A stretch of DNA of 64,000 nucleotides from Antedon mediterranea (taxonomy: Eukaryota; Animalia; Echinodermata): NCBI RefSeq assembly GCF_964355755.1, contig NC_092673.1, forward strand, positions 14,790,948 through 14,854,947, given 5' to 3'. The position numbers were made by a program, and so were the translations under genes. Positions 1,826-64,000 of the stretch are shown here, one piece after another. A model generated the notes under the pieces. That model searched no databases. It was not told the DNA's origin and saw only the letters and a list, made by a program, of their open reading frames with translations. Positions within the stretch are counted from its first letter, which is position 1, and each line of letters begins with the position of its first letter.

Positions 1826-1994
1826 GTAAGTTTTTTTCATTAGTTTTCTCCTTAAAGAAAAGCTCCCCTCAAACTTTTATTATGTTTAGATAAGTTTAAT
1901 TAAAGTGATTATACAAAAAAAAAAGGAAAAATATGGCAATATATTTAATAATATGGAAATAGTGCTTTTTAATATATTACATTTTTTTCTGCAG

Positions 1995-36619: not shown

Positions 36620-37355
36620 GCCGTGGCTAAAGATATGGTACCGTATTCTAACTTCTCTTTACTAAAGGTACGGTAAAATTGCATTACGTCATAACCAGCC
36701 AATGGGGTGCTGGTACGTGTGTGACGTCATCGTATAAGGACTTTGGATTTTTTTCATATCGCGAAAACAGTGATCAACCGCATTGTCTTTATGCTTCATT
36801 TATCGCTATTATCGCCGTCGTGTGTGACAAAAACTAAATGTAGCCTACGTCTGTTATTATTATTGAAAAGCCAAAACATGTTGATTTTAATTTAGAATAC
36901 CGAAAACCGTTTCAAAAGAGGCCTAGGCCTACTTACTACGTACTATAACCTCATTATATGAGTTTGTTTGTGTAGGGAAAGCGATGCCAGGCTGGGGCCA
37001 GCTGCATGTGTGCGCTGATTTACTGTGACTCAGCCCTGGGGCTACTGTCTAAAAATCATAGTATTTGAGGGCCCCTTTATTGTCCGCATTTGCTTTTTGT
37101 TTATGGTCAACATTATAAACAAAGTTTAGTAAAAAATATAGGCCTAAAGGCCATTTGGAATAAAAATAAAACCCTCATCAGCGCACACACATCCAACGGA
37201 ATTCTCAACAGACGCGATATGAAAAATCCAAAGTCCTTATACGATGACGTCACACACGTACCAGAACCCCATTGGCTGATTAAGACGTAATGCAATATTA
37301 CCGTACCTTTAGTAAACAGAAGTTAGAATACGGTACCGTATCTTTAGCCACAGCG
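36620..37355. mobile_element. MITE/foldback element with ~140-bp terminal inverted repeats
   Basis: 36620-36763 (CGCCGTGGCTAAAGATATGGTACCGTATTCTAAC...CATATCGCG) is the inverted copy of 37214-37355. Possible 2-bp TSD AA. Confidence 0.85.
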
Positions 37356-46529: not shown

Positions 46530-46908
46530 AAAATTTTTGTTTACATGATTTAAGTATCAAGAAGAAGAAGAAGAAGAAGAAGAAGTGACAGTGCCTACTC
46601 TACGGGCCTGTTAAATCAGTAACCAAAAAGTTAAAATGGTTACGAAGATCTGGATTCCTGACAGTTTTTATACCGTGCGTTGTTTGGATATTACAACGAA
46701 GAAGAAGTACTGTTGAGCTCAAGGTACCTGCTCAAGACGAAATAGACAGAGGCAAAAAAAAAAAAAAATTTTAGAAAAACAACTATAACTGATTAAATAG
46801 TAAACATTTTACAGTATATTAATACAGAAATAGACTTGCAAGAAAAGAATAATATTTACAAAATTCACAGAAAAGGAGAAAAGAAAGGGGAAAAAAAACA
46901 ACACAAGA

Positions 46909-47135
46909 ATGAGCACAAACATATACATCGAAATGCCGGTCTTCCACATGGAAAGGGTTCTGAAAGTGCTACGGCTTAAAAAAAAAAGCAACACAGCGGC
47001 AACGACGGCGATGCGGATGAAAAAAACAAAAAAGACTTGTGCGAAGTGATCGACAAAATAGAGAGATTGATAGATTGCAAAGCAGAAAGTGAAAATACTT
47101 TATCTTCTAAATTTAAGAAAATGATGGTCATTTGA
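46909..47135 (+). pseudogene. Small hypothetical viral ORF frameshifted in an A-run
   Basis: MSTNIYIEMPVFHMERVLKVLRLKKK continues as QHSGNDGDADEKNKKDLCEVIDKIERLID...MMVI* if one A is removed from the run at 46978-87. AATAAA follows. Confidence 0.4.
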
Positions 47136-47228
47136 AATAAAAGGAAATTGAAATTTATATACATATATGTGTTTTTTATTTATTATTTTTTTTTTTTGTT
47201 GTTGTTATGTTTCACAAGAATCTTTCTT

Positions 47229-48419
47229 ATGGACTTGCTCAAAGAGAGACCTGTGTTGAAGTTGGGATTGCCTCAACCTGCCGTGCAGGTCAGGTGGTCA
47301 AAGATAATGACAGTCGACCCTAGACATTTCAAGTCGTACGACTACGACGACTAACACGACGACGGCGGCGGCGGTGACGAGGGCAACGATTACGGAAGGC
47401 GTTATCTGACCGGTCGTCTCTGGTTGACCAGAATCGAAGATTACACAGACTACACGACGCTTTCCCGAACTCTGCAGTCTCTGGACGATTGGAGCGTGTT
47501 TGTGAGAAGTGGCAACCCCTCTCCAACGTTCCAGTGGTACTTCGACGGAAGGCGTTACGGATCCGACAACCCTTACTTCGAGCTTCTGATGAGAATATTG
47601 AGGCATCTGTGTCTGTCGTACAACAGATCGCTACCGTTGTGTCCGAAGAACGTCGCTTGCGCAGTCGAAACCTGCCTCGACAATTTGGCCGAGACGGAAG
47701 GTGGCGTAGGCAGAAGCGGCGTGCATTTGGGCCCGCCTCCGATGTTCGTCGGGCACGACAGACGACAGATCGGATGGCTTAACGCAGACTTCTTCTCTGC
47801 CCTTTTAACCCTGGAAACCTCGCAATGACTGATGGTAGGTCTGGCCGATAGATCTTCCCGTCTCGTTTTCGAAGGATCGCAAACGACGGAAAGCATCCTG
47901 AATTTCGAGTTGGCGGAAGTGGAATTCTTCGAATTTGTCGAGGACGTCGTGGAAGACGCAACGAACCCGTTGAGAGACTGGTGGGCGTACGGAAAATATT
48001 TCAATTCCGTCTCGGCCAAATTCGTCCGTCCTCTGAGGTTACTCACCGAGGTCAAAGAAAGACACACCGCTTTCACGACGGACTCGGACGTGTTCCTGCC
48101 AAGCGTTTGGAAACGGTTGAGAGCGACCGGGACCACGTTGCCTTCTTGCATAACCGAATCGACCGTGTTGCACGAAACGGACAGGAAATGCAAGGAAAAG
48201 GTGATTTCGCTTTTTCTAGGAGAACACCTAGAGCCTGTCGAAGACGATCTCGCCGTAGACGAAAACAAGATAAGAAGGGAGAGGTTGAAACGATGCATGA
48301 ACGACGAGATCGACGAACGACCACCCAAATTTCTCGATTCGCCGTTTGTTTCAGGGAATCTACTGCTCGGCGTAAAAAATCTGGACGTGACCGTGATTTG
48401 CGGATGCGCAATACTTTGA
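47229..48419 (+). pseudogene. Hypothetical viral protein (~396 codons) with two in-frame premature stops
   Basis: Track ORFs 47148, 47424 and 47832 share one frame. The only interruptions after ATG 47229 are TAA 47352-54 and TGA 47826-28. Confidence 0.75.
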
Positions 48420-48599
48420 CAAATTGACAAACAAAAGAATACAAAAAAAAAACTGCTAAACAATATTTTTGGTTTTTTGTGTTTTTATTTCCTTTGACCA
48501 TTTCTTTTTTTTTTTTTTTTTTTTCTTCTTCTTCTTTCGAAAGTAGACTTAAAACTATTTTTTTATTTATTTATTTTTGGGGGGGGGGGGGGCATTATT

Positions 48600-50869
48600 T
48601 TACGCTTCATCTTTTGCTGTGTAGTTCCATGCCTTTCCGCAGAATCGGTGTGCGTCGCAACACAAAGCGTTCGTACATCTTACGATGAATAATCTCCTCT
48701 CCCCGTTTTCGAGATCTACGCTTCGAAAGACCGGTTCGTTTTTTCTAACCTGTCGCTCTTCTTCGGCGGTCGACACCTTCACCGTGGAACAGCAACTGCC
48801 ACTGAACAAATTCCACCCTCCGCAGAGCTGCAGCTCCTTCCGGGGCTGGTGCGTCGGAATCTTTTCCAAAGTATCTTTGATCTCCTTCAACCGATGCAAT
48901 ATGCTCGTTCGGCAGTCCCCTGCTTCCGCGTTCCAAACGATTACGCTCAAAACGTTGCTCTTGTCGAGTTGGCAAAATTTTTTCAGCTCTCGGATCAAGT
49001 GCTCGACTTCCACGGTCGGATGGATGCACAAATGCGACAGCGGATGATAGAAAACGCCTCCGTGTTTCAGGTGGTAAGGCGTCTGTCTGTAGCATCCGAG
49101 GGCGGCGCAACTCTTTTTGAATCTGTGAGAGTTCGTCTCGTTTTTGCCCTTTCGAACGACGTCCCGGACCTCGATCGCTTCGTCGTCCTTCAGTTCGTCG
49201 ACGACTCGACAAAATTCTTTTACGCAATGGTCGGCCGCCGTATTGCTGTCTCCGATCCTCAGGGCTATGTCGATCATGACCTGTTCCAGTCGAGACACGA
49301 ATCTTTCGACGCCGGGCCTCGTCATTCCTGTGGTGCTCACCCTCCCGTCGGCATGGAGACACGCATACCTTTTCTTCTTGTCCGTCAGCAGCAAGCCGCG
49401 AAGCGTCTCCCTGTGTTTGAACCTTTGAAAGCTTCCTTCACCCAAGACTCGGGCGAATTGCTCTTCCAGCTCCTGTCTCCCGCCTGGAACTATGTCCAAA
49501 AACAACGAGTCGGTGTCGCCGTACAGCACCCGAGCACCGTTTTCTTCGGCGCAATTTTTTAGCGCGTTCAGTTGTTCCTTGCACTTTTCCGTCACGTGGT
49601 TGTAAAGGCTTTTCTTGCCAGACGTGCACAGACATCCGACGCATGCGTTGGCCGCTTGTTTGTACGCGGCGGAGTTCTGGGGAGTGATGTTTTTTCCTTC
49701 TCTGGCCGACACCAGTCTTTTCATGACGGACGGAAGCAGACCTTCTCGTACTTCGGCGTCGACGAAAGAGCCGTCTTCGAGAGCCGTCGACTCGTCCACG
49801 TTTTTGTCGATGATGAACCTCGGATAGCAAGACTGAAAGTCGTACACGTCGACGTCTCTGTGAATGCCGGACACGGTGTCCAGCACCAGGCCGCCTCTGC
49901 ACGTTTCGTCTTCGTTGACGCTTCCTTTGGGCTTCGGGTCCGCATTGCTCCTCGGAAACACCACACGCTGACGCTGCGCTTCTCTGCACAGCACCGACGA
50001 AAGGACGCCGGTCGACGATCCGTTGGGGAACTTTCCCACTATTCTGGACAAGTTCGTCTCGATTTCGACCAATTTTTTCGCTTCCACCTCTGACACGTAG
50101 CGTTCCAGCACGCAAACGTCGTCGTCTAGCTTCTTCGCCGACAAGCTCGCCGCTAGCTCGTGACAAGATTCGTAACCGACGTAATCGTAGACGGAGTCGT
50201 TGTCGCCGCCCGCCGGCGACCGTACGTGTTTCAAAGTGTCTAAGCACACGGGGAACCCGTCAACGGCAAGGGGTACCTCGCACACCCGACATCTGGCGAC
50301 GATGCTGTCCTTGACCCGACCACCGTGATACACGAACACGTCGGCAGATTCGATCGACTTTGCGATTTCCGACAGCGTGTCGATCTCCGAATTTTTGCCA
50401 TGCAGTCTCTTTCCGTCGGACAGCATCGCCGAAATTATTCGACCGTTCACGTCCCACCTGAGAACTACGCACAACACCGACAGTCGCACCGGGTGAACGT
50501 TCTGTCGTTCCAAGTGGATCTGCTCGTCGTACGTCAAGCTTTCGACGTTGCCGTCTTCGTCTTCGGAGTAACTGTGCCAAGCGCATCCGTGAACCCCGAC
50601 CGCGCACTGAGCGTCCAGGTCGCCCACGGACAAGGGGAGGTTGCCGAAGAGGTTGTCGACCTTGATGCCGTTCCTTTCGTCGGTCGTGAGCCTCCTGTAC
50701 TTCTTGGCGCAAGAAATTGGATCGTCGCCTCTGCGCATGATGCATTCTCCGTCCGTTTCGTCTTCGACGTACGACGTGAATTTCACTTTCCTCGTCTTCA
50801 ACGACAGCCGTAGAGGTACAACTTTCCGTTTATCTTGGAATACTTGACACGTGTCAGATACACGAACAT
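48600..50869 (-). CDS. polB: Family B DNA polymerase (RNA/DNA-primed type), probably frameshifted near the 5' end
   Basis: Region II RGGLVLD...YDFQSCYPRFII..N, region III AYKQAANACVGCL, region I YGDTDSLF, then KKKRYA. The long frame has no upstream ATG. An ATG at 50869 in another frame gives MFVYLTRVKYSKINGKLYLYGC, a plausible true N-terminus. Confidence 0.93.
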
Positions 50870-51609
50870 TGCGACTTTTGATCGGACAAAATTCTGAAGT
50901 CTGGAACTTCGACAGACTGTCTTTTCTTTTTGTATTTCTTTTTCTCCAAAGTCGATGCGAGTTCGTGTTGACCGGTTGCTTTTAGAGACTCGACGAAAGC
51001 TTTGTAACCGGACTCGTCTTGATGCTTCCGAACGTTGTTGAGGAAAAAGTAAACGTTTCTCTGTCTGTCACCGTCGAGGAGGAAATTTGCGTATTCGGGT
51101 TCGTAAATTCTTCGGACGACCATTTGTCTGACGGTGGCCTCCAGATTTATCGTTTCAGCGAACCGGTCGATGCGTTTCAGAAGAACGTTCCTCTCTCGCA
51201 ATCGTTTCTTGTATGTTTGATCGATTTCGTAGTGCGAAAGACGGACCATCGCCGACTTGAAAGAAGAAAAAGGATGATCTTTCTCGAACGGCGTGTTGAA
51301 AGTTGTTTTCGCTCCTTTTCTCAAAGCGGCAACAAGATCGTGGTGGCCGGCGCATTTAAGAGAATCCACGAAAGCTCCGTGAGCGTGTAATTTCGGATAC
51401 CTTCGAATGTCGTCGATGAGATAATACGCCATCCGATTCTCTTTAACCCCTTTCTCTCTGTCCATACGCAGTACAAAGTTCTCGAATTCCTGCGAGTATA
51501 TTTCTCTGACGACCAATGCTTCGAGTACCGCCGACAGGTTCATGGACGTGGCGAGGAGTTTGCGATGTTTCGTCAGCAACGGTTCGCCTTCGAAGTAACT
51601 TTCTTCCAT
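50854..51609 (-). CDS. Tandem CARD-CARD (death-fold) protein
   Basis: Two ~85-aa repeats with the CARD pattern: LLTKHRKLLATSMNLSAVLEALV...AFVDSLKCAGHHDLVAAL and LLKRIDRFAETINLEATVRQMV...AFVESLKATGQHELASTL. Basic tail KKKYKKKR. Confidence 0.8.
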   Translation of the reverse strand: MEESYFEGEPLLTKHRKLLATSMNLSAVLEALVVREIYSQEFENFVLRMDREKGVKENRMAYYLIDDIRRYPKLHAHGAFVDSLKCAGHHDLVAALRKGAKTTFNTPFEKDHPFSSFKSAMVRLSHYEIDQTYKKRLRERNVLLKRIDRFAETINLEATVRQMVVRRIYEPEYANFLLDGDRQRNVYFFLNNVRKHQDESGYKAFVESLKATGQHELASTLEKKKYKKKRQSVEVPDFRILSDQKSQCSCI

Positions 51610-51799
51610 TCCTTCAGCACAGAGGAGACAAGGTTATGTCGATGTTTGAAAGCCACGAATGAAAATAAAGAAAATTATATATTATATACCAAAACATGAT
51701 AAAAAAAAAAAAAAAAAAAAAAATGTATAATATGCGAGGAAAGCATGAACAACGCTGGACCTTCCTCAAGTTGGTTACGTTCTCTCAACCCCACGGCAT

Positions 51800-51806
51800 T
51801 ATATAG
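51800..51806 (+). promoter_or_regulatory. Candidate TATA box of F-box gene copy 1
   Basis: TATATAG lies within an upstream block conserved with copy 2 (CTCAACCCC..GGCA(T)TATATAGT.GGATTT; copy 2 at 54274-80). Confidence 0.5.
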
Positions 51807-51861
51807 TAGGATTTAAATCTGTAGAATGTATAGAGTCTAGCCGAATAACAAGCATCCAAGA

Positions 51862-53229
51862 ATGGCAGGAGGACTACAAAAAAAACGAGCGAAACGTTGC
51901 AGAAAAATGAACGAAGCGACGAAGATCGATCGTTGCCGTTTGTTTGAACTGCCAACCGAATTGCTGCTGCACATTTTCTCGTTCTTGGACAACACGTCGA
52001 AGTTACAGTTCGCCGATTCGAGTCCCTTCCTGGAGAAACTGTCGGGCGACTTGGAAATCGCCGCCACCGAGGCGACCGTCGAATTGTGCACACGTGAACG
52101 TGGCGGTGCGGCGGACGAGTTTTCTATCTACCGACCCGGAAACGTGAAGATGTGCATTCACCGAAAGTTCAAACCGTTTCTCGAACTGCCTCAGATCTCG
52201 CTGCAGTTTCACTTGGCCAACCTTGTGCTGAAGAACGTGCATTTTAGAAAGGGGACATTGCGTCGCATCTTGGAAGGGATTGTTGTTAACTTAGAGTATT
52301 TGGAATTGGACTCGTGCACCGGCGACGTTTTCCACCCTTCCCCCGAACAACTCGTCCCGGAAGACGGCATACGATATTCGTCGATACATTTGAAAAACAT
52401 GAACGTGCACTTGGACGACGTCCGCGAAACCCTGCTTCCGGATGAGCGTGTCACCCAATACACCTTCTACGTGGTACTGACCGACTGCAAAGTGACGGAG
52501 AAAGATCACGAACAGAACGGTGTGCTGTTTATTACGTACGATGGACGCAGCCACCCGTCCGATGTCGGTCGTTACTTCAACCTTACCGCGGTCTCGTCCG
52601 TGTGGAAAGAAACCGAGCGGTTGAAGGTTCGCCCCTACAAAGCGGGAGGAAGAGACACGGTGTGCATGCACCGTGTCAACTTGATCAGTTTTCAGGCGGC
52701 CGTAGACCATTTCGCCGAATCCTCGAACGAAACCTCCCTAGAACTTTCGTTCGACAGCTGCCTTGAGGAACGATTCGGCATGCTCGTGGGTATGCGGTTG
52801 GTGTGCTGGGAATCTTTGACGACGTTGTTTCTGATAGATTCGGTGGCGGAGGAAGACTTTCTTGGCGTTGTCATGTCGCACCACACGAACATAAACTCGA
52901 TAACGTTAAAAAGTTGCTGCGGCGATCCTTTCGGCGAGGTGGACACGCATCCCAACACGGCACTGAGGCAATTGAACCTGATCGATATGGTCGTCGACGA
53001 GGCCGGCATGGTCAAATTCATGACACCGATCGTCGACGTCGTCAGGTTAAATTTAGAAATGTGCGTGTTCGACGAACGTCTTTTCGCAAAACTATTGCAC
53101 GAAACATCCGGCTATGGTTGGTTCGACTGCGAGTACGTCCGCGAGCCAGGCATGTTGGAACCCGTTGAGATGTTTCTTGAAACGGTCAAAGAAACCGATT
53201 TATTATGCAAAAAAATTAAAATAAAATGA
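51862..53229 (+). CDS. F-box/LRR-like protein, copy 1 (455 aa)
   Basis: F-box LFELPTELLLHIFSFLD. LRR-like units LEYLELDSC, LTTLFLIDS, INSITLKSC and LRQLNLIDM. Basic N-terminus KKRAKR. Confidence 0.85.
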   Translation: MAGGLQKKRAKRCRKMNEATKIDRCRLFELPTELLLHIFSFLDNTSKLQFADSSPFLEKLSGDLEIAATEATVELCTRERGGAADEFSIYRPGNVKMCIHRKFKPFLELPQISLQFHLANLVLKNVHFRKGTLRRILEGIVVNLEYLELDSCTGDVFHPSPEQLVPEDGIRYSSIHLKNMNVHLDDVRETLLPDERVTQYTFYVVLTDCKVTEKDHEQNGVLFITYDGRSHPSDVGRYFNLTAVSSVWKETERLKVRPYKAGGRDTVCMHRVNLISFQAAVDHFAESSNETSLELSFDSCLEERFGMLVGMRLVCWESLTTLFLIDSVAEEDFLGVVMSHHTNINSITLKSCCGDPFGEVDTHPNTALRQLNLIDMVVDEAGMVKFMTPIVDVVRLNLEMCVFDERLFAKLLHETSGYGWFDCEYVREPGMLEPVEMFLETVKETDLLCKKIKIK

Positions 53230-53393
53230 AAAACATATGTTTATAATGAATATTATTACGAGAAATGTAATCGGACCAAAAAAAAAAAAAAAATATAAAA
53301 TAAAAACAAAATATTCTGTAATCATTGATATTTATTCAAGAAAACAATTAATAAAAGAAAAAAGAAAAACCAAATGCATTCTATAAATTTTTG

Positions 53394-54176
53394 TCAATCA
53401 TGATGACTTTGAAATATTACAAATGTCTTCGTTTCATCGTCTTTGTCAGCTTCTTCACTCTTCTTTAGAAGGAACCTTTCGGAAATTCGAATGTCGTCCT
53501 GAATGTTAGATGGTGTGAACGTAGAATATTCTTGTACGAGCTCCGTTGTCATGTCGGGATGTAATTTCTTCATGACAAATCTATATTCCTTTTGCATAGC
53601 CATCTGCGTGCCTGCTATAAACGACTTTGGAAGGGGAGAGAATCCCTGTGGAACATAAAAGTTCTCTACGACATCCGACAGAGTTTTCGGTAGGATAGTG
53701 TGTTTTCTGGTCATCGCACGTTCCATACCATCCGGTACGTTACGATAGAACGTTGTCAAGACTTCCCTTTTTTCTGTCTTTGTGAAATCGTAAAACTTTA
53801 CCACTACGCCTTTGACGTATTGCAACCGGATTCCTTGCAGATACTCGTCCAATTCATCGATGAAATACGTAGGCCTACGTCGACCAGTGTATGTGAATTC
53901 TATATACGCTCCCTGGAGTAGATATGCGATCATCATTTTCAATATCGGTTTTCCCAACAAATTCGGGTGTGCTATCGTTGGATGACTGTCCATACTTTTC
54001 AAATTCTCCGGAACGTGCCATTGATGGTCATAATAAATTTCGTGCGTGGTATGGTCTGCTGTGCCAACGTCTCGATGCACATCGTAGCCTTCGATCCACA
54101 AAATTCGTTTAAACCTCTCTTCAAAGTATTCTGTTCTTTGAATTTTCTGTTTTTCCTTTTCTGTTCTTTGCAGCAT
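53394..54176 (-). CDS. Hypothetical protein (260 aa) between the F-box paralogs
   Basis: Intact intronless ATG-initiated ORF bounded by A/T-rich spacers. AATAAA downstream on the minus strand (TTTATT near 53331). No motif recognised. Confidence 0.7.
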   Translation of the reverse strand: MLQRTEKEKQKIQRTEYFEERFKRILWIEGYDVHRDVGTADHTTHEIYYDHQWHVPENLKSMDSHPTIAHPNLLGKPILKMMIAYLLQGAYIEFTYTGRRRPTYFIDELDEYLQGIRLQYVKGVVVKFYDFTKTEKREVLTTFYRNVPDGMERAMTRKHTILPKTLSDVVENFYVPQGFSPLPKSFIAGTQMAMQKEYRFVMKKLHPDMTTELVQEYSTFTPSNIQDDIRISERFLLKKSEEADKDDETKTFVIFQSHHD

Positions 54177-54347
54177 TATTTCCAGTTTTGTTCTCTTTTT
54201 ATAACCAACCTATTTTCCACAATAATAGCCCCCTCCGATGTGTGCATGTATGTGTTTTTCCTCAACCCCGGCATATATAGTGGGATTTTCAGGTTCTGAC
54301 ACATCTATAGAATGGATAGAGTCTGGCCGAATAACAAGCGCATGAGA

Positions 54348-55659
54348 ATGGCAGGAGGACTACAAAAAAAAACGAGCGAAACGTTGCAGACAAAATAACG
54401 AAGCGAAGAAGATCGTTCGTTGCCGTTTGTTTGAACTGCCAACCGAATTGTTGCTGCACATTTTCTCGTTCTTAGACAACACGTCGAAGTTACAGTGGGC
54501 CAATTCGAGTCCCTTCCTTGAGAAACTGTCGGGCGACTTGGAAATCGTTGCCACCGAGGCGGTCGTCGGATTGTGCAGACATCCACGTCGGTTTACGGCG
54601 GACGAGTTTTCTATCCACCGACCCGGAAACGTGTTGATGTGCGTTCACCGAAAGTTTCTTCTCGATCCGCAGCTGACCTCGCCGCAATTTTACTTGGCCA
54701 ACCTTGTGCTGAAGAACGTGCATTTTAGAAAGGGGACATTGCGTCGCATCTTGGAAGGGATTGTGGTTTCCCTAAAGTATTTGGAATTGGACTCTTGCAC
54801 CGGTGACGTTTTCCACCCGTCCCCTGAGCAACTCGTCCCGGAAGACGGCATACGATATTCGTCGATACATTTGAGAAACATGAACGTTCACTTGGACGAC
54901 GTCCGCGAAACCCTGCTTCCGGATGAGCGTGTCACGCAATACACCTTCTACGTGGTACTGACCGACTGCAAAGTGACGGAGGACAATCGAGCAAAGAACG
55001 GTGTGCTGTTGATTACGTACGACGGGCGCAGCAACGCTCCCGATGTCGGTCGTTACTTCAACCTGACCTCGGTCTCGTCCGTGTGGAAAGAAACCGAGCG
55101 GTTGAAGGTTCGCCCCTACAAAGCGGGAGGAAGAGACACGGTGTGCATGCACCGTGTCAACTTGATCAGTTTTCAGGCGGCCGTCGACCATTTAGCCGAA
55201 TCCTTGAACGAAACCTCCCTAGAACTTTCGTTCGACTGCTACGACGAGGAACTATGCGGCATGCTCGAGGGTCTGCGGTTGGTGTGCTGGGACTCTTTGA
55301 CGACGTTGTTTTTGATAGATTCGGTTGCGGAGAAAAATGTTCTTGCCGTTGTCATGTCGCACCACCCGAGCATGAGTGCGATAACGTTGAAACGTTGCAG
55401 CGGCGATCCTTTCGGCGAGGTGAGAACGGTCCCCAACACGGCACTGAGGCAATTGAACCTGATCGATATGGTCGTCGAAGAGGCCGGCATGGTCAAATTC
55501 ATGACACCGATCTTCGAAGTTGTCACCTTAAATTTAGTAGAGTGCAAGTTCGACAAAGAGCTTTACAAAAAACTGTTTTACGAGGCTACCGGCTGCACTT
55601 TTAGAATTAATAAATTTCCAAACTACCAACAATTCGAAACGCAGACATCAAGACGTTAA
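54348..55659 (+). CDS. F-box/LRR-like protein, copy 2; +1 frameshift in the A-run after the start
   Basis: Paralog of 51862-53229. The ATG at 54348 matches copy 1, but the run after CTAC has 9 A (54364-72) against 8 in copy 1. Confidence 0.85.
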
Positions 55660-55994
55660 CTATAAGTCTAAAGTTCCATATCATTGATATTTTTTTTATT
55701 AGGAATACTGTTTGTTGTTTGTTTTTTGTTTTTGTTTGTTATTTTTTTTTTTTAGTGGAAGAAACTTAATAAAGAAATATACGAGAGAAAAAAAAAACCA
55801 CAAAAACTCGGCTACGAAATGTTGTTTCCTATTCGTGGGGCCTGTAAACTATATTTCATATAACATAGTCCAAATCATTATAGGGATTCGGTTTAAGAGA
55901 AGAAGCACGACGTTCTTGAATATGCGTTTTTTTTTCTCAGACGACAACCATTCCTTCGGTTGCTTCTGTTATAGTCAACTTTCTTCCGTGCCCT

Positions 55995-56258
55995 TCAGAA
56001 CAGAGAGACGATGTGTTTGTAGCCTGCGTCTCGAAGTGATCCGACAAACGCCTGGTATGCATGCTCGCCATGTTTTTCTATGTCTTTAAGGATAAAGGTA
56101 ACCACTCTTTGCCTACTGCCTATAGAGAGAATTTATTCGGCTTGTCTCAATCTATACACCCGCCTTTTCACCAGACCCTTCAGCACCGGTAAAGGTTCTA
56201 ACGATTCCGCGAGTAGAACACGGTGTAAGTGCAAACGCTCTTTGTCTTCCAGCAGCAT
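55995..56258 (-). pseudogene. Single-CARD protein with a premature stop
   Basis: MLLEDKERLHLHRVLLAESLEPLPVLKGLVKRRVYRLRQAE*ILSIGSRQRVVTFILKDIEKHGEHAYQAFVGSLRDAGYKHIVSLF, read through TAA 56133-35. It aligns by eye to both CARDs of 50854-51609. Confidence 0.75.
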
Positions 56259-56359
56259 TCTGACGAATGAACTGGAATTTTTTGTACAAAAAAAAATTAC
56301 ACTATTACAACTACATCGTGGCTTCATAAACGATGGCTAAGCCTTTTATTTGTAGATTT

Positions 56360-56399
<40 letters not shown>

Positions 56400-56479
56400 T
56401 TTTTTAATTATTCAAAGTAAAAATTGTACAAAAAAAAAAAAAAAAAAAAGAAACACACAAACAAAATAAAGGTATAGTT

Positions 56480-59400
56480 ATGTTCTCTCTCAGTCTCCAG
56501 TCTCCTCATCCACCCAAAGTGGCATACTTGATCGCATCCGACTACAGAGGTTCTTCAAAGTCGACCACGAGCACAGTGTTGTTTCGTAAGATAGCGCAGA
56601 ACAAATTCCACTTTCAACTGTGGTTCAGAACGTCCATCCCGACGGAAATCAGACGAGCAGCGATCGCAGTCGAACTGGAGGACGGAAGAAAGAACTTCGG
56701 CGTCAGAATTTACGACGGCCACTTTTCGTACGACAGACATCTGTACGACAACGGCAAGACGATAGCTTTGAGCGTGATCGAATCGAAACGCCGTCATCGC
56801 ACTCGGATCGAAGTGGCCGGTGAGGAACGAAGGTTACTTCTTGCCACCGCTGCTTTCGGTCAAGGAACGATAGCGACGAGCACTTGTCTGTTTCCGTTGT
56901 GGGAGACGAAACCGTTGTTTTGCGACGAAGACGTACGCGACACCTTCTTTCAAAGGGCAACGTTTCTGAACTCGAGGATAACGGTTACCGACAGGAAGAA
57001 GAAAGTCCCACGCTCAAGCAACGAACAAAGAATGTTACGTCTGATACGTTCCGTTCCGTCGATGATGCTGGTGCGTCTGGGGCACATTCATTTAGACTAG
57101 ACAAAAAGTAGTGAGCCCTCTAGCGGTCATTTGTGATTTCTGAGATTCATCGAAGCGCGACAACATCACCCGGAAATGATGTGAATTAAAAATTTTAATA
57201 GGGTTAAACTCTTTTAACCAATTGAAAGCCTTAAATTATAGTTCCTTATGAATAATTCATGAAAATAATGAAAGCAAGGGTTGAAGAAGCATGTGACTTG
57301 GTTTTTGGAACAGGATAGCAGTTATGATCGTGTCAGGTAATCATTGAATTTGCTCTTCTTTTTGTTAAATTTTATACGGTTTTTATCAATAATAATATTG
57401 TACATTTTTACGAGACCATAAAAAAATTCCTCAATTTTTGAGTAAACGAGTGACTAAATAAAAAGTTACTATGTAATGTAAATATTCGTTTGACAAAAAA
57501 TGGGCATGTTGATATTTTCAGGTATTTTTTAAATGGCGATTGAAATAGGTAAACAAATCACATGTATAACGGTGGTTTGTGCGAAGCTGGGCCTAGCCTT
57601 GATGGTCCAACGCGTACTGTGTGTTAATCAATGCGTATAGATACACACGTAGTCGTTTAGGCCAATTTTTTACATGTTTATTTATTAATATTAGGCCCCA
57701 TTTTCATTTATTTTAATTAATGTACTGAATGTACCACACTTTACAACTCTATATAAATTAGATTTTGTACTTGTATTAAATTCAAACGTTTTATGGGATT
57801 TAAAACATTAAGCTAGGCCTTGTAGTAGGCCTTGGACCACATGTTAGGTTTTTCAGCCTAATTTATCATGCAGTATACCTCTAGCCCATCTTTCAAATAC
57901 ATATTTAAATTAAGATACTTTTTATATTTCTATATTTTTTATAGGATCTGACTCCAGAAAACATTTGCATCACTTGAAAGCGGCTATTTATGGACAGCAT
58001 GTTGACATTCAAAAAAATTTGACCAGCTCTTATTAATTAAATGTCTTTTAAATTAAAGGTTTTCATTATAATGAAATGTACAGTGACAGAAATTTAAATG
58101 ATTCTCATAATTGAGGTTTCTCATAGATTTAATATTGAAGGTAAATAAATAAAGCTGTTTGTTATTCTTGCCTTTAGAAATAAACATGTTGTTAGTACTA
58201 TATTATTAGGCCTAGGCCATTATACAAATTAAAACTAAAAAATACAATAATCATATTTAAGGCCTACACAGCAGTACCTTACTTGATTTGATTTTTTTTC
58301 AAATATTTAATTGATGAAATAAATGAGTTTGACTTTTCAATTAGTTGCCATTTTATTAGTTTCTGTGTGTTTTTATTTATATTCTTAAAATAATTGTATA
58401 CAACAACTTTAAAGTATTGCGAAGAAGTGATCAAATTAAAGTAGGCCTATTTGTATGTTATTGTCACTTAAAATTATGCAGTTAAAGTATTTGATTTTAG
58501 GGTGACAGAAGCGGTTAGGCAAGAAAAGAAATAAATTTGGGAATTTTGTTATGCGGTAAAAACAATTAAACATAATTTACCCCTAATGCATGTAAATGTA
58601 GAAAACATTGCTTATGTTAGCGCGACCGAAACTCGCTACTGGGAATAGAGCCTGCAAAAGCGACGCGTACACACCTACTCGGGCACCGGCGGAGCGCGAT
58701 CGATAGTAAATATACCCGATTTCAAATGATCATAAAATTCTTTTAAAAAATATCAACATTTTGATTTTTTGAGGATTAAAAGTAAAGATATTGAAATTTA
58801 ACATGCTATTTACAAATATGTATTTAAAAATTCGGAAACAATTTTAGCGTGATATTAAAACAAACTTTTTAGAGTTCCGCGATTTCCTACGCAGGATTTG
58901 TTTGTTTTCATTGTTAATGGGCGAATGTTACCTAAACTAGAATCGTTATAAATCTTTTAAATTTGTATTATAAGTAATTTCTTTAGTATTCTTAGTAACA
59001 TCGAATGTCTCTAATTAACTAGCAGTTATTTATACTAACTATTGTTCAATAATAAGCGTGTATGAAGTGAAAATCTATAGTAATAATGTTCTTAGTCAGT
59101 TCGTCTCGCTCGCGTGAAGTCTTCGGGTTTCCCAATACAATTTTCAGCGGTAAGATAGGCTCGCGCTAATGTTTAAATCAAAAGCGCTCTCAAAACACTT
59201 TTTGTCCAAAATTCGCAATATGACGTGAGTGTGGGAAATTCGGTTATATCTGACGTTGGGGCTGCTGCTCGACGCCGATCGCTACCCCGGATTCAAGCAG
59301 TTGTTTCAAAGGTGGCGGCCGTGCGTTCATCAGGGTTCCGAGGTAGGTCTTTACGATCCCATCAACGACGAGCTGTTCCTCGGCGACGGTCGTACCAGCC

Positions 59401-59753
59401 GAGATTCTTCGACCGGGATCGTCTACTGGACGAGCGACAATACCATACGATGCGGCGGCGGCGGCGAACACTTGCCGCCCGAGATCATGGAAGCTTCGTG
59501 CAAAGAGGCGTCGTTGATGGCTCCGCTCTCCATACCGCCTTTCGTAAAGTTTCACCAAAGCGGCAGCTTTGATCCGGATTCGCGTCTGGTGGCGTACGGT
59601 CCGACTAGGGAAATGGAGGAGAAGTTGTTCGACGTCGTGACGGAGACGACTTACTTCGATGTGTTTTCCTACGCCGACGTCTGCCGGGTGTCGACTGCGG
59701 CGGCGGCTGCTTGCAACGTGATCTGTTCGACGATCACCCTGACGAACTTTTGA
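56480..59753 (+). pseudogene. Hypothetical viral gene split by a transposon (56480-57082 plus 59236-59753)
   Basis: CpG-rich coding sequence on both sides of an AT-rich insert. Removing 57083-59235 joins ...SVDDAGASG to EIRLYLTLGLLLDADRY... in frame. One further frameshift near 56990 is needed to link to the 56480 start. Confidence 0.6.
57083..59233. mobile_element. Non-autonomous CAC-terminated DNA transposon (CMC/EnSpm-like) with bipartite asymmetric ends
   Basis: Left end CACATTC-N11-ACAAAAAGT, right end (reverse complement) CACACTC-N21-ACAAAAAGT. 2-bp TSD GG. Host-like AT-rich interior with AGGCCT motifs. Confidence 0.75.
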
Positions 59754-60376
59754 TACTCTTGAGAAAGATTCTTGGAGATGCGTTTGTGATTGACAGAAGT
59801 TGTGAGTTTGTTCTTGTTCAACGTGTAAATCTGAAACTGTCTCATCATTTGACAAAGATCGCCGGCCAGTCCGTTTGACACCAGCATCGAAACAAACTCG
59901 TTTTTATCCATACCGAGACTCTTGTTGAGTTTTTGGTCCAGATAATGGAAGGTGTCGTCGAGCAGTTGCTTGAACCATATAGCGACGCCGTAATAGCTTT
60001 CAATCCCGTTGATCGTGCGTTTGTTTCTCAACTCGCTCAAGTCCACGCTCACTATCGACGCGTACGTTTCGGCCAATATTTCCAAGTCGGTAGGCTCGTC
60101 TTCGGAAGCGGATCGACTGCCAGCCCCGGGGCATCGCTCAAGGTGGTCACGAAGGCCGTCACGTTCTTCGATCGCTTTTTCGAGCTCGTTCCGGAGGTCT
60201 TCGACGACCTTGTGCAACCTGCCGTTCTCGTCGTTGCTGGTCCGCAGTTGCTCGAGCGTTTTTGCATGTTTGCGACTCAACTCTTGAAAGCGGGCGAACC
60301 CGGTGTCTGTGGGAGTGGCATTCTGCCCACTGCTTTCAGGAAAAGGCAATCGATTTAACTGAACCCTCAGAGTCAT
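59669..60376 (-). CDS. Hypothetical viral protein with an N-terminal coiled coil (235 aa)
   Basis: ATG-initiated after an A-rich spacer. Heptad-like stretch LEQLRTSNDENGRLHKVVEDLRNELEKAIEERDGL. Its 3' end overlaps the convergent gene. Confidence 0.7.
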   Translation of the reverse strand: MTLRVQLNRLPFPESSGQNATPTDTGFARFQELSRKHAKTLEQLRTSNDENGRLHKVVEDLRNELEKAIEERDGLRDHLERCPGAGSRSASEDEPTDLEILAETYASIVSVDLSELRNKRTINGIESYYGVAIWFKQLLDDTFHYLDQKLNKSLGMDKNEFVSMLVSNGLAGDLCQMMRQFQIYTLNKNKLTTSVNHKRISKNLSQEYQKFVRVIVEQITLQAAAAAVDTRQTSA

Positions 60377-60524
60377 AATAGTGTGAGGTAATGTTGTTGT
60401 TGGGAGGTTTTTTTTTTGTTTTTTTTTTTAGGGGTGGTTTTTAAGGCTAATATTGTTATCGTATTTCTTATTTGTATCTTTTTTTTTGGTTCTCCGTTTT
60501 GATTTTTTTTTGTTTTTGTTGCAA

Positions 60525-60914
60525 ATGCAAATGCAAATGGAAAGTTGCGTGTACAGATACTTTTCGGAAAACTACAGGGTAGACGACTTTGTAGAAGAAG
60601 ACGTCGATCGTATGGTTTCAAGAGCCACCGATCGTTACGTCGAATGCGTGGACAAACTGAAGGTGTCTCTGACGAGTTTGAGATCGCAGAAAGAGGATGC
60701 TGCCGCAGCTGCTGCCACCGGCGACGTGGTCACTCTCATGACCGCCTCAAACAGAGACGTACTCTCGAGAAGTGGCAGCGATCGCCACGGACCGATTCCG
60801 CCGGCACTCGATCCGTCTGCGGAGATCGTTCCGAGTTGGTTCGAAAATTTTGAGAACGCCGTGCGAGGGAAGAAGACCTGGTTCAGCGTCAACTACAACC
60901 GGAGACCACGATAA
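60525..60914 (+). CDS. Hypothetical viral protein (~129 aa)
   Basis: ATG cluster at 60525/31/37, CpG-rich codons, and AATAAA at about 60944. Confidence 0.65.
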   Translation: MQMQMESCVYRYFSENYRVDDFVEEDVDRMVSRATDRYVECVDKLKVSLTSLRSQKEDAAAAAATGDVVTLMTASNRDVLSRSGSDRHGPIPPALDPSAEIVPSWFENFENAVRGKKTWFSVNYNRRPR

Positions 60915-61025
60915 GTGTTTGTTTTTTTGGGGGAGAAAAACCCAATAAAATGGCGGGGTGAAAAAAAAAAACAAAAAACGAAAAATAGTTTATTTATTTT
61001 TTTTATTTTTGCAAAAAAAAATTAA

Positions 61026-63097
61026 TCATTTTCGGGGACGAAATTGTTTTCGATAGCGGTTATTTTCTTTGCGTGCCTCCCAGTAGTTGTAGTTGTAATA
61101 ATTTTCTGGGACAGAGTAGCCTGCGTCTACCGTCGTCGTTTTCGAATGGATCGGCGTTGGGGATCGAGGAGCAAGATGTTGTCGATTGAGGTCCTTGGCG
61201 GAGGCGGCTCGGCTTTCCAAAAGATCGGCGAGTTTCTCGAGAGTGCTACTCTCGTCGGCTTTCTGTCTCTTGTAGGGACGCTCATCCCTTTGCTCCGTTT
61301 CGTGTTCTCTTTTGTTGTCGGAACCGTAATATCTGCCTCTTTTCCGGGGAGAGAGGGAAGAGTCCCTTCGTCGTTCGCCGCTTATGCGGCTGTGTCTTCT
61401 CTTCCTCGAACGAAAACATCAAAAACAACATAATATAGCTATTAACAAGTCATTAAGACGGGTTACTAAATTGTGTGTTGAAGGCGATTTCACTGACAGG
61501 CTTAAGATTCTAAATTTACCAGATATGGTTCAAAGAATGAAATTTCATAGTATAATTTTTGTAGTTAAGTGTTTGCATAATTTAATTGATTTTGATATAT
61601 TTTAATACCTTACAATTAATTCTCGGTATCCAGAGTCCCTCACCTTTAAACACATGTATGCTAGAACTAATGCATTTAAATACTCCCTGTTTGTTAATTT
61701 CCCTCGAATATGGGAATGTATCCCGCATGAAGTTCGTAACAAAGTCCTGTTTAACTTTGGGGGGTTTAGAAGGGATTTGAAAAAATGTATTACTGATATC
61801 GAATTCATCTAGACTATCATTGTGTTTTTATGTCTATTGCGTTTTTCGTACTATTAGTTGGGAAAGCCACTCGACAGTGCAGTTCTTTTGAATTGATCCA
61901 CTTTTGGTTACCCGCAGGTGCTGATAGTACTTTTGTTCTGTTTTGTTGAATGATGCCGTACCTTGTTTATGATTTTTGTATGTTACCTGGAAATTGAATA
62001 AAATAAAAAAATAAAAAATAAAATAACGACCTCGCTCGTTTTCGCCGAGTCGCTCTTCGACGCTTTTGAAGTAATCTTTGCAAACGCTGACAGCGTTCTC
62101 GTTGGTTTTCGCCAGCAAGTTTCTGTGAACGTCCAGTATCTGTTTAATCGAGGAGGCTCCGGTGATGTGAACGTCTTCTTGCATCTTCGGAAATCGCTGC
62201 TTTAAAAGATTGCTTATTTGGTTCTTGAAAGCCCTGTCCGACGTGGCGTCGTCGACGAGTTCGTTGGCGGCCCTGAACGTAGCCGCCACGTCCACTTCCA
62301 CGTGCTCGTTTTCGTTCGGGGCCGTCAACTTTTCGGTGAACTCTTCGAAGTCGCTCATCCTTTTCTTGTACTCCGGCCCCTGTTTGTCCTGCGCGATCTT
62401 GTGTACGTTCAGAATGAAATCTCCGAACTGAACCCTCCAGAGATCCAACTTTTCTTTGAACGTGTCTAGCTTCTGTTTGTTGCACTCGTCCTTGCTCTTG
62501 AGCATACACAGTATGGTGTTGAGATTGTCCTGCGAAACGGTGCTTGCAAGTTTTTCGATCGTCTCCACCTTTTTGCAGAATGTTCTCGTCAGACGCCATC
62601 ACGTTCTCCGCAGGCCCGTTTTCTGCTCCACGCTTATACCCGAATCTCTCTCTGGCAACTCTAAGCGCCATTTCTTCGTCATCGCAGTAAACGGCCACCG
62701 TTCCTTTCCTCTGGCCTGTCTCGACCAGAGAAACTTCTACGCACTTTGTGTGATCGGCTCGCCTGTAGCTGAGAGACAGGCAGTTCAGATTCCGAGAGAA
62801 CGGGCTGTTGAGAAAGTTCTCGTCCTCGATCTCCAACAGGACGGCGACGGCCCCGCCGTTCTCCGTGTTGGATCCGGGGTACGTGCGATCTCTCCACCAT
62901 TTCCGGACGGTGCCGATGCCGTCCGGGGAATGCACGCCTTTGCCGTTCTCGCGTCCCTTCACGTGCTTCCAACGAACCGGGAGCTTCTCGAGATTCCATC
63001 GTTTCACCACGTCGGGAGTCACGTCGTACTCTTCGTCCCGGGCCTCGAGTTTGACGTCCGTAACCACGTAGCCGACCGCGAACCTCTTTATCTTCAT
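61026..63097 (-). pseudogene. Herpes-type capsid maturation protease (assemblin)-scaffold precursor, disrupted by a LINE and a +1 frameshift
   Basis: AVGYVV, LPVRWKH (His), IGTV, CLSLSY (Ser) and EVSLVETGQRKGTVAVY (cf. HCMV LPLNINH, GLSLSS, HVALCSVGRRRGTLAVY). Removing one A at 62570-74 and bases 61414-62029 gives a 484-aa ORF. Confidence 0.85.
61414..62024 (+). mobile_element. 5'-truncated CR1/L2-like LINE inserted in the scaffold gene
   Basis: RT C-terminal remnants (RRVTKL...DRLKILNLP; RTNAFKYSLF...RIWECIP), an (AAAT)n/A-rich tail, and a 5-bp TSD AACGA (61409-13 and 62025-29). Confidence 0.85.
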
Positions 63098-63612
63098 CGC
63101 AGCCTCTTCAACTCCTTCTTTGCGTTCTTCTTTGCGTTCTTCTTTCTCCTGACGTATTTCATCGCTAAGGTACACCTTTCGGCTTTAAGGCGAGCGAGAT
63201 CCTCTTTGTCGTCTTCTTCTATCCTGCAAGGTCTGATGCTCAACGTTTTCTCCTTCAGGTCCACCAACGCCGTAATGTTTTCCGACATGCCGATGAGTAT
63301 CACAGTTAACCAGTCTATGTGTCTGACGTCGACGAACACCACTCCGTCTGCATGTTTCTTGTCGTCGACGATCGACCTGCAGAAAGACGACATGCGGCAA
63401 GCTATCAACGCCACGGTGGGATGGAGATCGGACCTCTGGAACGAAGAATGGTCGTTTGGGATTCCTAATCCGGCTATCTCGCAATTGCACCGAATGCCGC
63501 GAGAGAAGTGCACGGCTCCTGCAAGGAGAGAACAGTCGATGCAACAGCGCATGCCCCCTCGACACGAATCCAACAAAATCCGTAATTCAAGTTCCGATAT
63601 GGTACTCTCCAT
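63094..63612 (-). CDS. Hypothetical Cys-rich viral protein (172 aa) with a basic C-terminus
   Basis: ATG 63612 (MESTISELEL...). CCIDC and CNC motifs. Its TGA overlaps the protease ATG (ATGA, 63094-97). Confidence 0.7.
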   Translation of the reverse strand: MESTISELELRILLDSCRGGMRCCIDCSLLAGAVHFSRGIRCNCEIAGLGIPNDHSSFQRSDLHPTVALIACRMSSFCRSIVDDKKHADGVVFVDVRHIDWLTVILIGMSENITALVDLKEKTLSIRPCRIEEDDKEDLARLKAERCTLAMKYVRRKKNAKKNAKKELKRLR

Positions 63613-63634
63613 CGTGTGAAATTTTGTTTTTTTA

Positions 63635-63722
63635 CGTGTGTGTGCGGGTGTGTTTGTGTGTGCAGGGTGTGTTCGTGCGTGCAGGGTGTGTTTGTGTGGG
63701 TGTGGTGTGAGTGGGTGCCTGC

Positions 63723-63761
<39 letters not shown>
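63635..63761. repeat. (GT)-rich and (TA)n microsatellites upstream of the 63612 gene
   Basis: Directly visible GTGT runs and an approximately 36-bp (TA)n. A similar (TA)n lies at 56362-56394. Confidence 0.9.
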
Positions 63762-63763
<2 letters not shown>

Positions 63764-64000
63764 GTGTGCATATGAATTTTAAAGATTATGTTAGTAATTA
63801 ATATTTTTCGAAAAAAAAAATAAATAAACAGAAATTAATACAACAACAAAAAACGAGCCAAAGTTTCTTTGATTTTTATTCATTTATTTATTTTATATAA
63901 GTCTAATAATATTAATAGACTAAAATCATAGCATGCAATTACATTTTTTTTTTTTTTTTTTAGGTTTTCTTTCGTTGGGTGTTTTCATAGATAATTTCTG

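Follow-up and report, generated by a model that had tools for sequence, protein, structure and literature searches.

Probable Remains of a Large DNA Virus, Likely Related to Herpesviruses and Interrupted by Transposons, in a Chromosome of the Crinoid Antedon mediterranea

Introduction

Three families of herpesviruses are recognised, and to our knowledge molluscs are the only invertebrates with formally described members. A dense block of virus-like genes in an echinoderm chromosome raises the question which virus it was derived from and whether it has become part of the host genome. The block lies at the right end of the window, as we call the whole stretch of 64,000 nucleotides of Antedon mediterranea DNA that was analysed. 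A preliminary description of the window had proposed an endogenised member of a herpes-related lineage, and this proposal is supported by the assemblin fold of a protease, a scaffold with maturation-type sites, the existence of relatives, host transposons within viral genes, and a chromosome-scale record of the host part. In our judgement the block from position 46,724 onwards is probably a damaged part of the genome of a large DNA virus, interrupted by transposons, in the host chromosome. It is likely inherited through the germline of the crinoid (Antedon) and likely derives from a lineage without a name that falls within Herpesvirales or beside it. Membership in Herpesvirales is likely rather than proven, since genes for capsid, terminase, or portal were not identified in the window and the junction is not bridged by any contig. 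A crinoid-borne lineage which sequence searches do not tie to a named family, with a protease about as far from each of the three families and an atypical polymerase, would, if true, fill a gap among deuterostome hosts and bear on the origin of herpesviruses and on whether their polymerase was ever replaced, and chromosomal copies in related species would constitute a datable record of infection.

Junction and Layout of the Block

In the composition profile of the window the host DNA at 23.5–46.7 kb has a GC content of 0.322 (about 0.32) and an observed to expected CpG ratio of 0.69, compared with 0.466–0.495 and 1.38–1.46 in the viral segments, and the abrupt switch from host DNA to a dense gene block described earlier is thus real. 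The boundary had been placed at 46,900; it exists, but has to be corrected to 46,723/46,724, where it cuts a high-copy host repeat. Contigs of this repeat stop matching at 46,723 and beyond this position run into other sequence, which is the same in sequencing runs X1 and X2 in one comparison and in X1, X5, and X8 (three of four runs) in another. No contig bridging host and virus at 46,723/46,724 was found among the contigs listed from other runs. Neither a transposon end nor a telomeric repeat was seen at the left junction, and a piggyBac transposase and CCYT/TTAA ends are absent there and in the window; the left end is probably a break, and the right end lies beyond the window. For a Pao-type transposon protein from the host part there is a record located on a contig of 36.2 Mb, and the protein falls into a cluster with three proteins of Antedon mediterranea. 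An identity look-up of ten window proteins in a protein collection found no record for nine of them.

The viral part of the window comprises 14.5 kb with packed, apparently intronless genes, gene-like frames accounting for about 85% of the block when its two inserts are excluded, and polyadenylation-type signals are found between the genes. The earlier picture of a tightly packed, intronless block holds in this respect but needs to be amended in two others. Two AT-rich host repeats (57,078–59,233 and about 61,414–62,029) break the block, and recounting yields about 13 genes instead of about 14. Seven of the 13 are broken, two of these by host transposons, and the present copy is dead. Some of the frameshifts fall within homopolymer runs and could be errors of the assembly. 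Rfam gave 0 matches across 44–64 kb, and PolB was the only product named by PHROGs and NCBIfam among the window proteins. No RNA runs containing the block were listed, which has no bearing on its expression.

The Protease-Scaffold Gene

A gene on the reverse strand had been described as an assemblin-type protease fused to a scaffold. Our results support the assemblin fold, but the gene is not a single open frame; it consists of three pieces which line up in order on the protein P0125. The assemblin-type capsid maturation protease domain (62,561–63,097, minus strand) matches the Pfam family Herpes_ORF28 with E 2.7e-5 and contains His45, Ser108, Glu121, a G-x-R loop, and a release-type site at 166. 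The middle, helical piece of the scaffold (62,030–62,580, minus strand), detected by tblastn with residues 167–343 of P0125 at 44% identity, is frameshifted relative to the protease near 62,570. The C-terminal piece (61,026–61,413, minus strand), detected with residues 341–451 at E 0.006, carries the late maturation-type site of the family and an NYW-type motif.

Folding the protease from its single sequence gave a poor model with a pLDDT of 41.6; the model used for fold searching had a pLDDT of 78.8 (about 79). Three of 48,161 chains reached a Z score of at least 8, and the scores were 11.8 for the protease of VZV, 10.7 for HCMV, 9.2 for KSHV, and 6.7 for gp21 of phage T4. Foldseek matched the protease of HSV-2 with E 7e-7, so that the assemblin-fold match for which the preliminary description had asked was obtained. 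Among the top 13 matches in BFVD every named one is a herpesvirus protein, with ortho-, allo-, and malacoherpesviruses all represented, and named phage proteins begin at rank 14. Herpes proteases thus took the top ranks in three fold searches, a ranking which compares herpesvirus with phage enzymes. The ESM Atlas returned no usable match and the phage records no meaningful match for the protease. The modelling supports the prediction that the protease has the assemblin (herpesvirus) fold.

Ten relatives of the window protease were found, giving a family of 11 sequences without a named member, and the relatives come from metagenome or run assemblies. Herpes_ORF28 matches seven of the 11, with a best E of 1.4e-9 and with 24 bits for the window protease, below the Pfam cut-off of 40; the phage prohead-protease families of Pfam match none of the 11. 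His45 is invariant in all 11 and Ser108 in all ten covering that position. The third catalytic position, which aligns with residue 157 of HCMV (histidine in the wild type), is glutamate in eight of the ten with a residue there. Maturation-type sites occur in the fused scaffolds of all eight full-length relatives (456–625 aa). A tree of ten of the 11 sequences (the 67-aa fragment P0130 was left out) yielded two well-supported groups and, as it contains no named reference, cannot place the lineage.

HSV UL26, HCMV UL80 (Peptidase S21), and OsHV-1 ORF107 share with this gene the predicted fold, the histidine and serine positions, the arginine loop, and the fused scaffold with maturation-type sites (PMC11565193). 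The window protease differs from orthoherpesvirus assemblins and OsHV-1 ORF107 in its shorter domain (about 165 aa versus 211–256 in the solved herpes enzymes), the glutamate at the third catalytic position, and a G-x-R instead of a G-R-R loop. Its structural identity to herpes proteases is 19–27%, about equal for all three herpes families. Readings of the block as a Polinton or as part of an NCLDV were rejected since the assemblin-scaffold gene is foreign to both; we know of neither group containing it.

Relatives and a Capsid Candidate

The relative L001 (15.9 kb) keeps, upstream of its protease, the 172-aa gene which lies next to the protease in the window as well, and has, two genes downstream, a capsid-sized gene of 1,130 aa with four 36%-identical relatives; the 308-aa gene in between is without any family match. 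Searches with the capsid candidate (1,122–1,130 aa) against Pfam, PHROGs, NCBIfam, the sequences of the PDB, and phage records gave no match, and the ESM Atlas offered only generic leads at about 0.90, including capsid proteins which are not of the HK97 type. It has no match within the window. The search for capsid, terminase, and portal genes proposed earlier did not identify a gene for a major capsid protein (MCP), terminase, portal, or triplex in the window; in L001 neither a terminase nor a portal was identified. RNA polymerase subunits, TFIIS, and a small-tower MCP were not seen in either of these two fragments. Sequence searches with the window proteins, which were word-index searches and miss distant relatives, found no named viral protein. 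Scans of IMG/VR with PolB, P0129, P0121, P0135, and the alignments A3 and A4 gave no locus, with one relative counted in one scan, and a scan of GTDB with A3 found none. With the alignments of the protease and of the capsid candidate as markers, animal genomes can be screened for further members of the lineage.

The Polymerase Gene

The family B DNA polymerase of the preliminary description is present (48,600–50,869, minus strand; PF00136, E 8e-15) and has a Cys-rich C-terminus. A frameshift near 50,810 cuts off its 5' end with the first approximately 20 codons. The protein had been called unusually small; it starts upstream of the 712-aa reading frame but is still small at roughly 750 aa, a relative having 738 aa. 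The window protein is 45% identical to P0001, and no proofreading or exonuclease domain is recognisable in it. Against the PDB a profile scored 90.7 bits with archaeal-type PolB, 63 with Pol alpha, 35 with Pol delta, and 32 with the HSV polymerase, an order of scores from a profile of two sequences. With a typical herpes polymerase one would not expect archaeal PolB and Pol alpha to outscore HSV. The polymerases of herpesviruses and mirusviruses have been reported as sisters near Pol delta/zeta (PMC10132985).

These scores bear on another reading, which is that the block is an integrated duplodnavirus but not a herpesvirus, i.e. a separate animal lineage at the order or phylum level, or an animal mirusvirus, with a PolB of its own. 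It draws further on the glutamate at the third catalytic position where HCMV has histidine, on the short protease domain, and on a capsid candidate which matches no herpes MCP. We regard it as improbable, as Herpes_ORF28 recognises most of the protease family and the phage prohead-protease families none of it, and as herpes proteases came first in all three fold searches. For a mirusvirus in particular, the length of the capsid candidate fits a large tower, the mirusvirus tower being substantially smaller (PMC10132985), and neither the 14.5-kb viral window nor L001, fragments as they are, contains an RNA polymerase gene. An origin in or next to Herpesvirales is the reading that we prefer.

Host Repeats in Viral Genes and Copies in Other Runs

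The first insert (57,078–59,233) is an AT-rich host repeat of 2,156 bp with CACA...TGTG ends forming a short imperfect inverted repeat. It has a GC content of 0.31, is rich in the host motif TAGGCCTA, and shows a read depth far above its flanks in X1 and X2; contigs of all four runs join across its position without it. It is likely a non-autonomous DNA transposon, presumably of the CACTA/Chapaev type. The second (about 61,414–62,029, plus strand), an AT-rich host repeat of about 616 bp in the scaffold gene, carries an A-rich 3' tail, is flanked by a duplication of 5 bp, and is, judged from this anatomy, likely a truncated retroelement. It had no match in Pfam, and its read depth is far above the flanks in all four runs. 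Contigs of X6 and X8 span 60,933–62,030 with 476 letters, compared with 1,096 in the window.

A misassembly joining a free viral genome to host DNA would agree with the location of the junction inside a repeat and with the missing independent contig across 46,723/46,724. A misjoin would neither produce the clean-ended host repeats with short flanking duplications inside viral genes nor the many stops and frameshifts in these genes, and we consider this explanation very improbable. Integration in the chromosome is indicated by host repeats within viral genes, by the broken genes, and by the host record on a 36-Mb contig, while no listed contig spans the junction itself.

Four runs (X1, X2, X6, and X8) from two coded organisms contain the block at 98–99% identity without either insertion. 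Over the listed viral pieces the mismatches amount to 0.78% in X1, 1.14% in X2, 1.80% in X6, and 1.77% in X8. The whole block is present in all four runs compared, which had been chosen for containing its left half. A skip of 1,193 bp inside PolB occurs in X2, X6, and X8, and hence in both organisms, with only 39 letters on its shorter side, and the read depth along the block is uneven in X2. Depth in these runs is not copy number, so that the uninterrupted sequence could be free or latent virus. Only the present copy would then be endogenous, and the sequence elsewhere would come from a virus that is common in these animals in a circulating or latent form. The contigs of other runs lacking both inserts, the lack of a listed host-virus bridge, and the origin of the relatives from metagenome or run assemblies agree with this. 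The same PolB-internal skip in three runs of two organisms and the uneven depth of X2 fit several partly deleted chromosomal copies better, and each of the four runs, found by the left half, holds the whole block; a circulating virus is therefore the unlikely, though not a negligible, explanation. In X10 a single piece of 151 nt at depth 2 was seen, which was not counted as evidence.

Comparison with Known Systems

Integrated herpes-like genomes have been reported from lancelet, starfish, and ribbon worm, and the invertebrate setting is less unprecedented than had been assumed. BelcheriHV-1 of Branchiostoma belcheri, a malacoherpesvirus-like genome with a GC content of about 46% found in several individuals, resembles the present block as a herpes-like genome in the chromosome of an invertebrate-grade deuterostome with repeat-rich host flanks; 27 of its 62 reading frames match malacoherpesviruses, whereas the crinoid block is linked by profile and fold only (PMC12373286). 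The elements of starfish and ribbon worm have an echinoderm host in one case, are embedded in host DNA, encode PolB, and are described as divergent herpesviral lineages. Their polymerases branch between Ortho- and Malacoherpesviridae, and the main-text passages name no crinoid among the hosts of such integrations. Teratorn and Teratorn-like alloherpesviruses of teleosts are likewise herpesvirus genomes of the germline, present in many individuals and also in related species, but Teratorn forms a fusion with piggyBac that has CCYT ends and TTAA duplications (PMC10175614), none of which occur at the crinoid left junction. The ORF28 Pfam family matched by the window protease also gives its name to ranid herpesvirus proteins in BFVD. 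Herpes-like viruses of sandworm and peanut worm are divergent invertebrate lineages outside Malacoherpesviridae as well; they are known from short transcript contigs via the terminase (PMC6950620). Mirusviricota, duplodnaviruses of eukaryotes, likewise encode a capsid maturation protease and a PolB, and differ by protist hosts, an RNA polymerase of their own, and a small capsid tower (PMC10132985).

This lineage and its crinoid host appear to be undescribed. Tentatively, and with somewhat less than even confidence, we suggest a fourth herpes-like lineage of animals at the family level or deeper. It would be characterised by a minimal Ser-His-Glu capsid protease, by a capsid protein with a length of about 1,125 aa, and by a PolB which is small, lacks proofreading, and is not an ortholog of the herpes and mirusvirus polymerases, would be multi-copy in crinoid germlines and shared by related species, and would have at least ten relatives in public data.

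Judged from herpesvirus biology, the parent virus may have replicated in the nucleus and built an HK97-type capsid around the scaffold, which the protease would have cut and released ahead of DNA packaging. A viral genome would have entered a germ-cell chromosome, at the left end probably via break repair inside a host repeat, as no transposon or telomere end was seen there. The present copy may then have decayed, with other, less damaged copies surviving both in this species and in a related species.

Other Viral Genes

Next to the protease lies a 172-aa Cys/His-rich gene with a basic tail (63,094–63,612, minus strand), which matches the gene directly upstream of the L001 protease (BLASTP E 4e-7). 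It is reminiscent of UL31 of the nuclear egress complex; a two-sequence profile found no such chain in the PDB. At the left end a small gene (46,909–47,134, plus strand) is frameshifted at an A-run and followed by a gene of about 396 codons (47,229–48,419, plus strand) with in-frame stops at codons 42 and 200, which, read through with X, had no useful Pfam, PHROG, or NCBIfam match. A gene starting at 56,480 is cut at 57,077 by the host DNA transposon, and the coding stretch past it (59,234–59,753) is likely its 3' part (both plus strand). Open frames encode proteins of 260 aa (53,394–54,176, minus strand), 235 aa with a coiled-coil-like segment (59,669–60,376, minus strand), and 129 aa (60,525–60,914, plus strand).

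The CARD-only genes reported before were recovered as a tandem two-CARD protein of 251 aa in an open frame (50,854–51,609, minus strand; PF00619 in two stretches, E 3e-6) and a single-CARD gene with one in-frame stop (55,995–56,327, minus strand; E 3.7e-8 with the stop read through with X). The F-box/LRR genes are present in two copies with 88% DNA identity, the first an open frame of 455 aa (51,862–53,229, plus strand), the second (54,347–55,659, plus strand) with its start out of frame at an A-run. Their F-box part is seen at E 4e-4 and 2e-4, under the Pfam cut-off, and their LRR part as five LxxLxL-type motifs per copy and one weak Pfam match (E 0.13). Searches of PDB sequences yielded no useful match for either the two-CARD or the F-box proteins. 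A phage contaminant was rejected because this cargo and the polyadenylation-type signals between the genes are eukaryotic. The CARD-only proteins may have acted as decoys in CARD signalling in apoptosis and innate immunity, and the F-box proteins may have redirected SCF ubiquitin ligases of the host.

Composition and Gene Content

Animal DNA extends up to about 46.7 kb of the window with a GC content of 0.32–0.33 and a CpG observed/expected ratio of about 0.7. From position 46,724 to the window end it gives way to a block which two host inserts divide into three segments, with a GC content of 0.47–0.50 and a CpG observed/expected ratio of 1.38–1.46, and the abrupt switch in composition reported in the preliminary description was thus borne out. 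About 13 apparently intronless genes make up 85% of this block when the inserts are excluded, and the A/T-rich spacers between the genes carry AATAAA signals. The genes proposed earlier also proved right in kind: besides a PolB and a protease-scaffold gene the block has CARD-only and F-box genes, two of each. The block is a real endogenous viral element, its protease-scaffold gene makes it duplodnaviral, and it is likely to be herpes-related.

The host DNA contains a spliced gene with a fibrinogen domain (exons near 1.0–1.8 kb, Pfam Fibrinogen_C, E 2.6e-25) and, after it, a Thr-rich exon (together 1,017–2,230), about 73 copies of an 80-bp satellite with 98% identity at 10.9–16.7 kb, within a satellite region from 10,942 to 17,521, and a Pao/BEL retrotransposon with two long frames on the reverse strand (19,211–23,482). 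Of ten window proteins looked up by identity, only the one of this retrotransposon was on record (NCBI and UniRef); the three proteins clustered with it come from Antedon mediterranea, a crinoid echinoderm, and Antedon is the likely host. Directly after the 80-bp satellite stand 12 copies of a related 64-bp satellite. Inverted repeats, 134 and 75 bp long, mark MITE-like elements at 36,619–37,355 and 26,170–26,552, respectively.

Protease and Scaffold

The protease stretch of the window (P0121, 179 amino acids) matches the Pfam family Herpes_ORF28 with an E value of 2.7e-5 and 24 bits, the Pfam cut-off being 40, and Peptidase_S21 weakly. Two sequence searches yielded ten unnamed relatives, eight of which are full length (456–625 amino acids) and consist of the protease followed by a helical scaffold; Herpes_ORF28 matches seven of the eleven family members. 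In the family alignment histidine 45 is invariant and serine 108 is present in every row covering that position. The third catalytic position, which aligns with residue 157 of the HCMV protease, is a glutamate in eight of the ten rows with a residue there, a histidine in P0129, and a lysine in the truncated P0132. V/I-x-A-S/G/A sites, which resemble the consensus of the release and maturation sites of herpesviruses, occur repeatedly within the scaffold and close to the C-terminus of the family members.

A structure model of P0121 calculated from the family alignment (pLDDT 78.8) was compared with known folds. The proteases of VZV, HCMV, and KSHV gave Z scores of 11.8, 10.7, and 9.2, with an rmsd of 2.8–3.5 over 105–130 residues, as compared to 6.7 for T4 gp21 and at most 6.1 for unrelated folds. 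In a BFVD fold search the named rows in the best 13 were herpesvirus proteins of abalone, sea otter, bat, turtle, frog, human, elephant, bovine, and bird origin, with a TM score of about 0.5 throughout. With herpesvirus proteases first in the fold searches of the predicted model, the assignment to the assemblin type made previously was confirmed, and judged from this model the window protease is about equally distant from all three herpes families.

Two further candidates, P0131 and P0133, were dropped from the relatives as repetitive matches. The longer protease-scaffolds P0134–P0136 (585–625 amino acids) have a different C-terminal motif and form a second group with good support; P0135 sits on a 51.8-kb contig, on which packaging genes of the lineage might be found.

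The fusion of protease and scaffold is described in PMC11565193 as conserved in OsHV-1 and vertebrate viruses. By analogy, capsids would assemble in the nucleus under the guidance of the scaffold, which the protease would then free before packaging. The CARD-only proteins may serve as decoys in the signalling of cell death and immunity, and the F-box proteins may be adaptors sending host proteins to degradation.

Polymerase and Placement

Among 120 matches listed from 7,994 scored candidates, the window PolB has one close relative, P0001 (738 amino acids, 45% identity); the others reach at most 54 bits, and those with a name are archaeal or bacterial PolBs. P0001 contains PF00136 only, whereas 117 of the 119 other listed matches also have the exonuclease family PF03104, and no exonuclease domain was found in the window PolB with Pfam. 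Both proteins have intact motifs A and C, and in both the consensus tyrosine of motif B is missing. Both also carry a cysteine-rich C-terminal segment (48,600–48,800 in the window, with no Pfam match there), which is suggestive of the metal-binding tails found on cellular Pol alpha and delta. A profile built from the two sequences scored highest, at 90.7 bits, on 5mdn, an archaeal-type PolB; Pol alpha followed with 63 bits, human Pol delta with 35, and HSV polymerase with 32, a ranking of profile scores and not a phylogeny. As far as such scores can indicate, this ranking is the main result against plain membership in the Herpesvirales, and it gives the strongest grounds for suspecting that the lineage is a distinct one. 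According to PMC10132985, the PolBs of herpesviruses and mirusviruses are sisters, placed close to Pol delta and zeta.

The lineage is without a named member in the sequence searches made. Divergent herpes-like terminases of worms are known (PMC6950620), with general background in PMC12096621, PMC12639132, and PMC10827195. The literature searched, in which coverage of subscription journals was thin, yielded no published description of this element, no herpesvirus from crinoids, and no report of endogenous viruses in Antedon; a preprint supplement listing 781,111 regions from 7,103 assemblies may include the locus. The kind of phenomenon is already known, and the lineage, the atypical polymerase, and the host appear to be new.

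A Related Contig with a Capsid Candidate

The relative P0129 lies on a JGI contig of 15.9 kb (L001) and is 38% identical to the window over the protease. Directly upstream is a homolog (5,262–5,792, E 4e-7) of the 172-amino acid Cys/His gene of the window (63,094–63,612), with the CCxxC and histidine residues conserved and a basic tail. The conserved protein recalls the herpes nuclear egress protein UL31, a likeness for which a PDB profile search gave no support. Downstream of P0129 follow genes for 308 and 1,130 amino acids; the gene order after the protease differs from that of the window. The longer gene has four relatives of 1,122–1,127 amino acids with 36% identity, and because of its size, position, and conservation its product is likely the major capsid protein. 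This candidate gave no match in Pfam, PHROGs, NCBIfam, PDB, or phage records, and none in the 64-kb window.

L001 continues after the capsid candidate, at 11,661–13,289, with possible envelope genes: one encodes a multi-pass membrane protein, the other a protein predicted to be membrane-bound or secreted. Upstream, at 17–3,820, lies a coiled-coil protein of 1,267 amino acids, possibly a tegument protein.

Integration and Decay

Seven of the 13 viral genes are broken. In-frame stops occur in the gene at 47,229 and in the single-CARD gene, and frameshifts in the leftmost gene, PolB, the second F-box copy, and the protease-scaffold gene. A host-like insert of 2,156 bp with a GC content of 0.31 occupies 57,078–59,233, and contigs of all four compared runs join across the site. 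The scaffold gene is interrupted by 616 bp that have an A-rich tail and are flanked by a 5-bp duplication; in X6 and X8, two runs of organism B, contigs span this site with about 620 letters fewer. Both inserts are high-copy in at least the runs of organism A. Host transposons within viral genes imply that the viral DNA resided in the nucleus of the host, and finding them in an assembled chromosome suggests the germline. Frameshifts that lie in runs of the base A may stem from errors of assembly, unlike the inserts and the in-frame stops.

At 46,723 the apparent junction interrupts a high-copy host repeat, and no contig among those listed bridges it. One X8 contig continues for about 360 letters leftward from 46,783, and for this stretch no match to the host flank is listed, so the left end of the block seems to be a break rather than a natural terminus. 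Neither a piggyBac end nor a telomeric repeat was seen at the left junction or in the window. Across the junction (46,717–46,736) two copies of a 7-bp word stand 6 bases apart, which recalls the templated inserts of end-joining repair but may be due to chance.

Spread and Duplication

Parts of the region 44.5–54.4 kb are contained in 11 runs from six studies, five of them with half the words or more. Four runs were compared over 44–64 kb, in which read depth gives no copy number. Over the listed viral pieces the mismatch to the window was 0.78% and 1.14% for organism A (X1, X2) and 1.80% and 1.77% for organism B (X6, X8), and a skip of 1,193 bp inside PolB was found with short anchors in X2, X6, and X8. 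Latent or free virus in the sampled organisms may account for block sequence in other runs; the pattern fits a multi-copy germline family common to related species.

The F-box gene is duplicated together with its upstream region (51,784–53,113 and 54,261–55,594) with 88% identity, and by this measure the duplication would be far older than the 1–2% divergence between block copies. Contigs of X6 and X8 jump back within the pair, again on short anchors, which hints at a longer tandem array in organism B.
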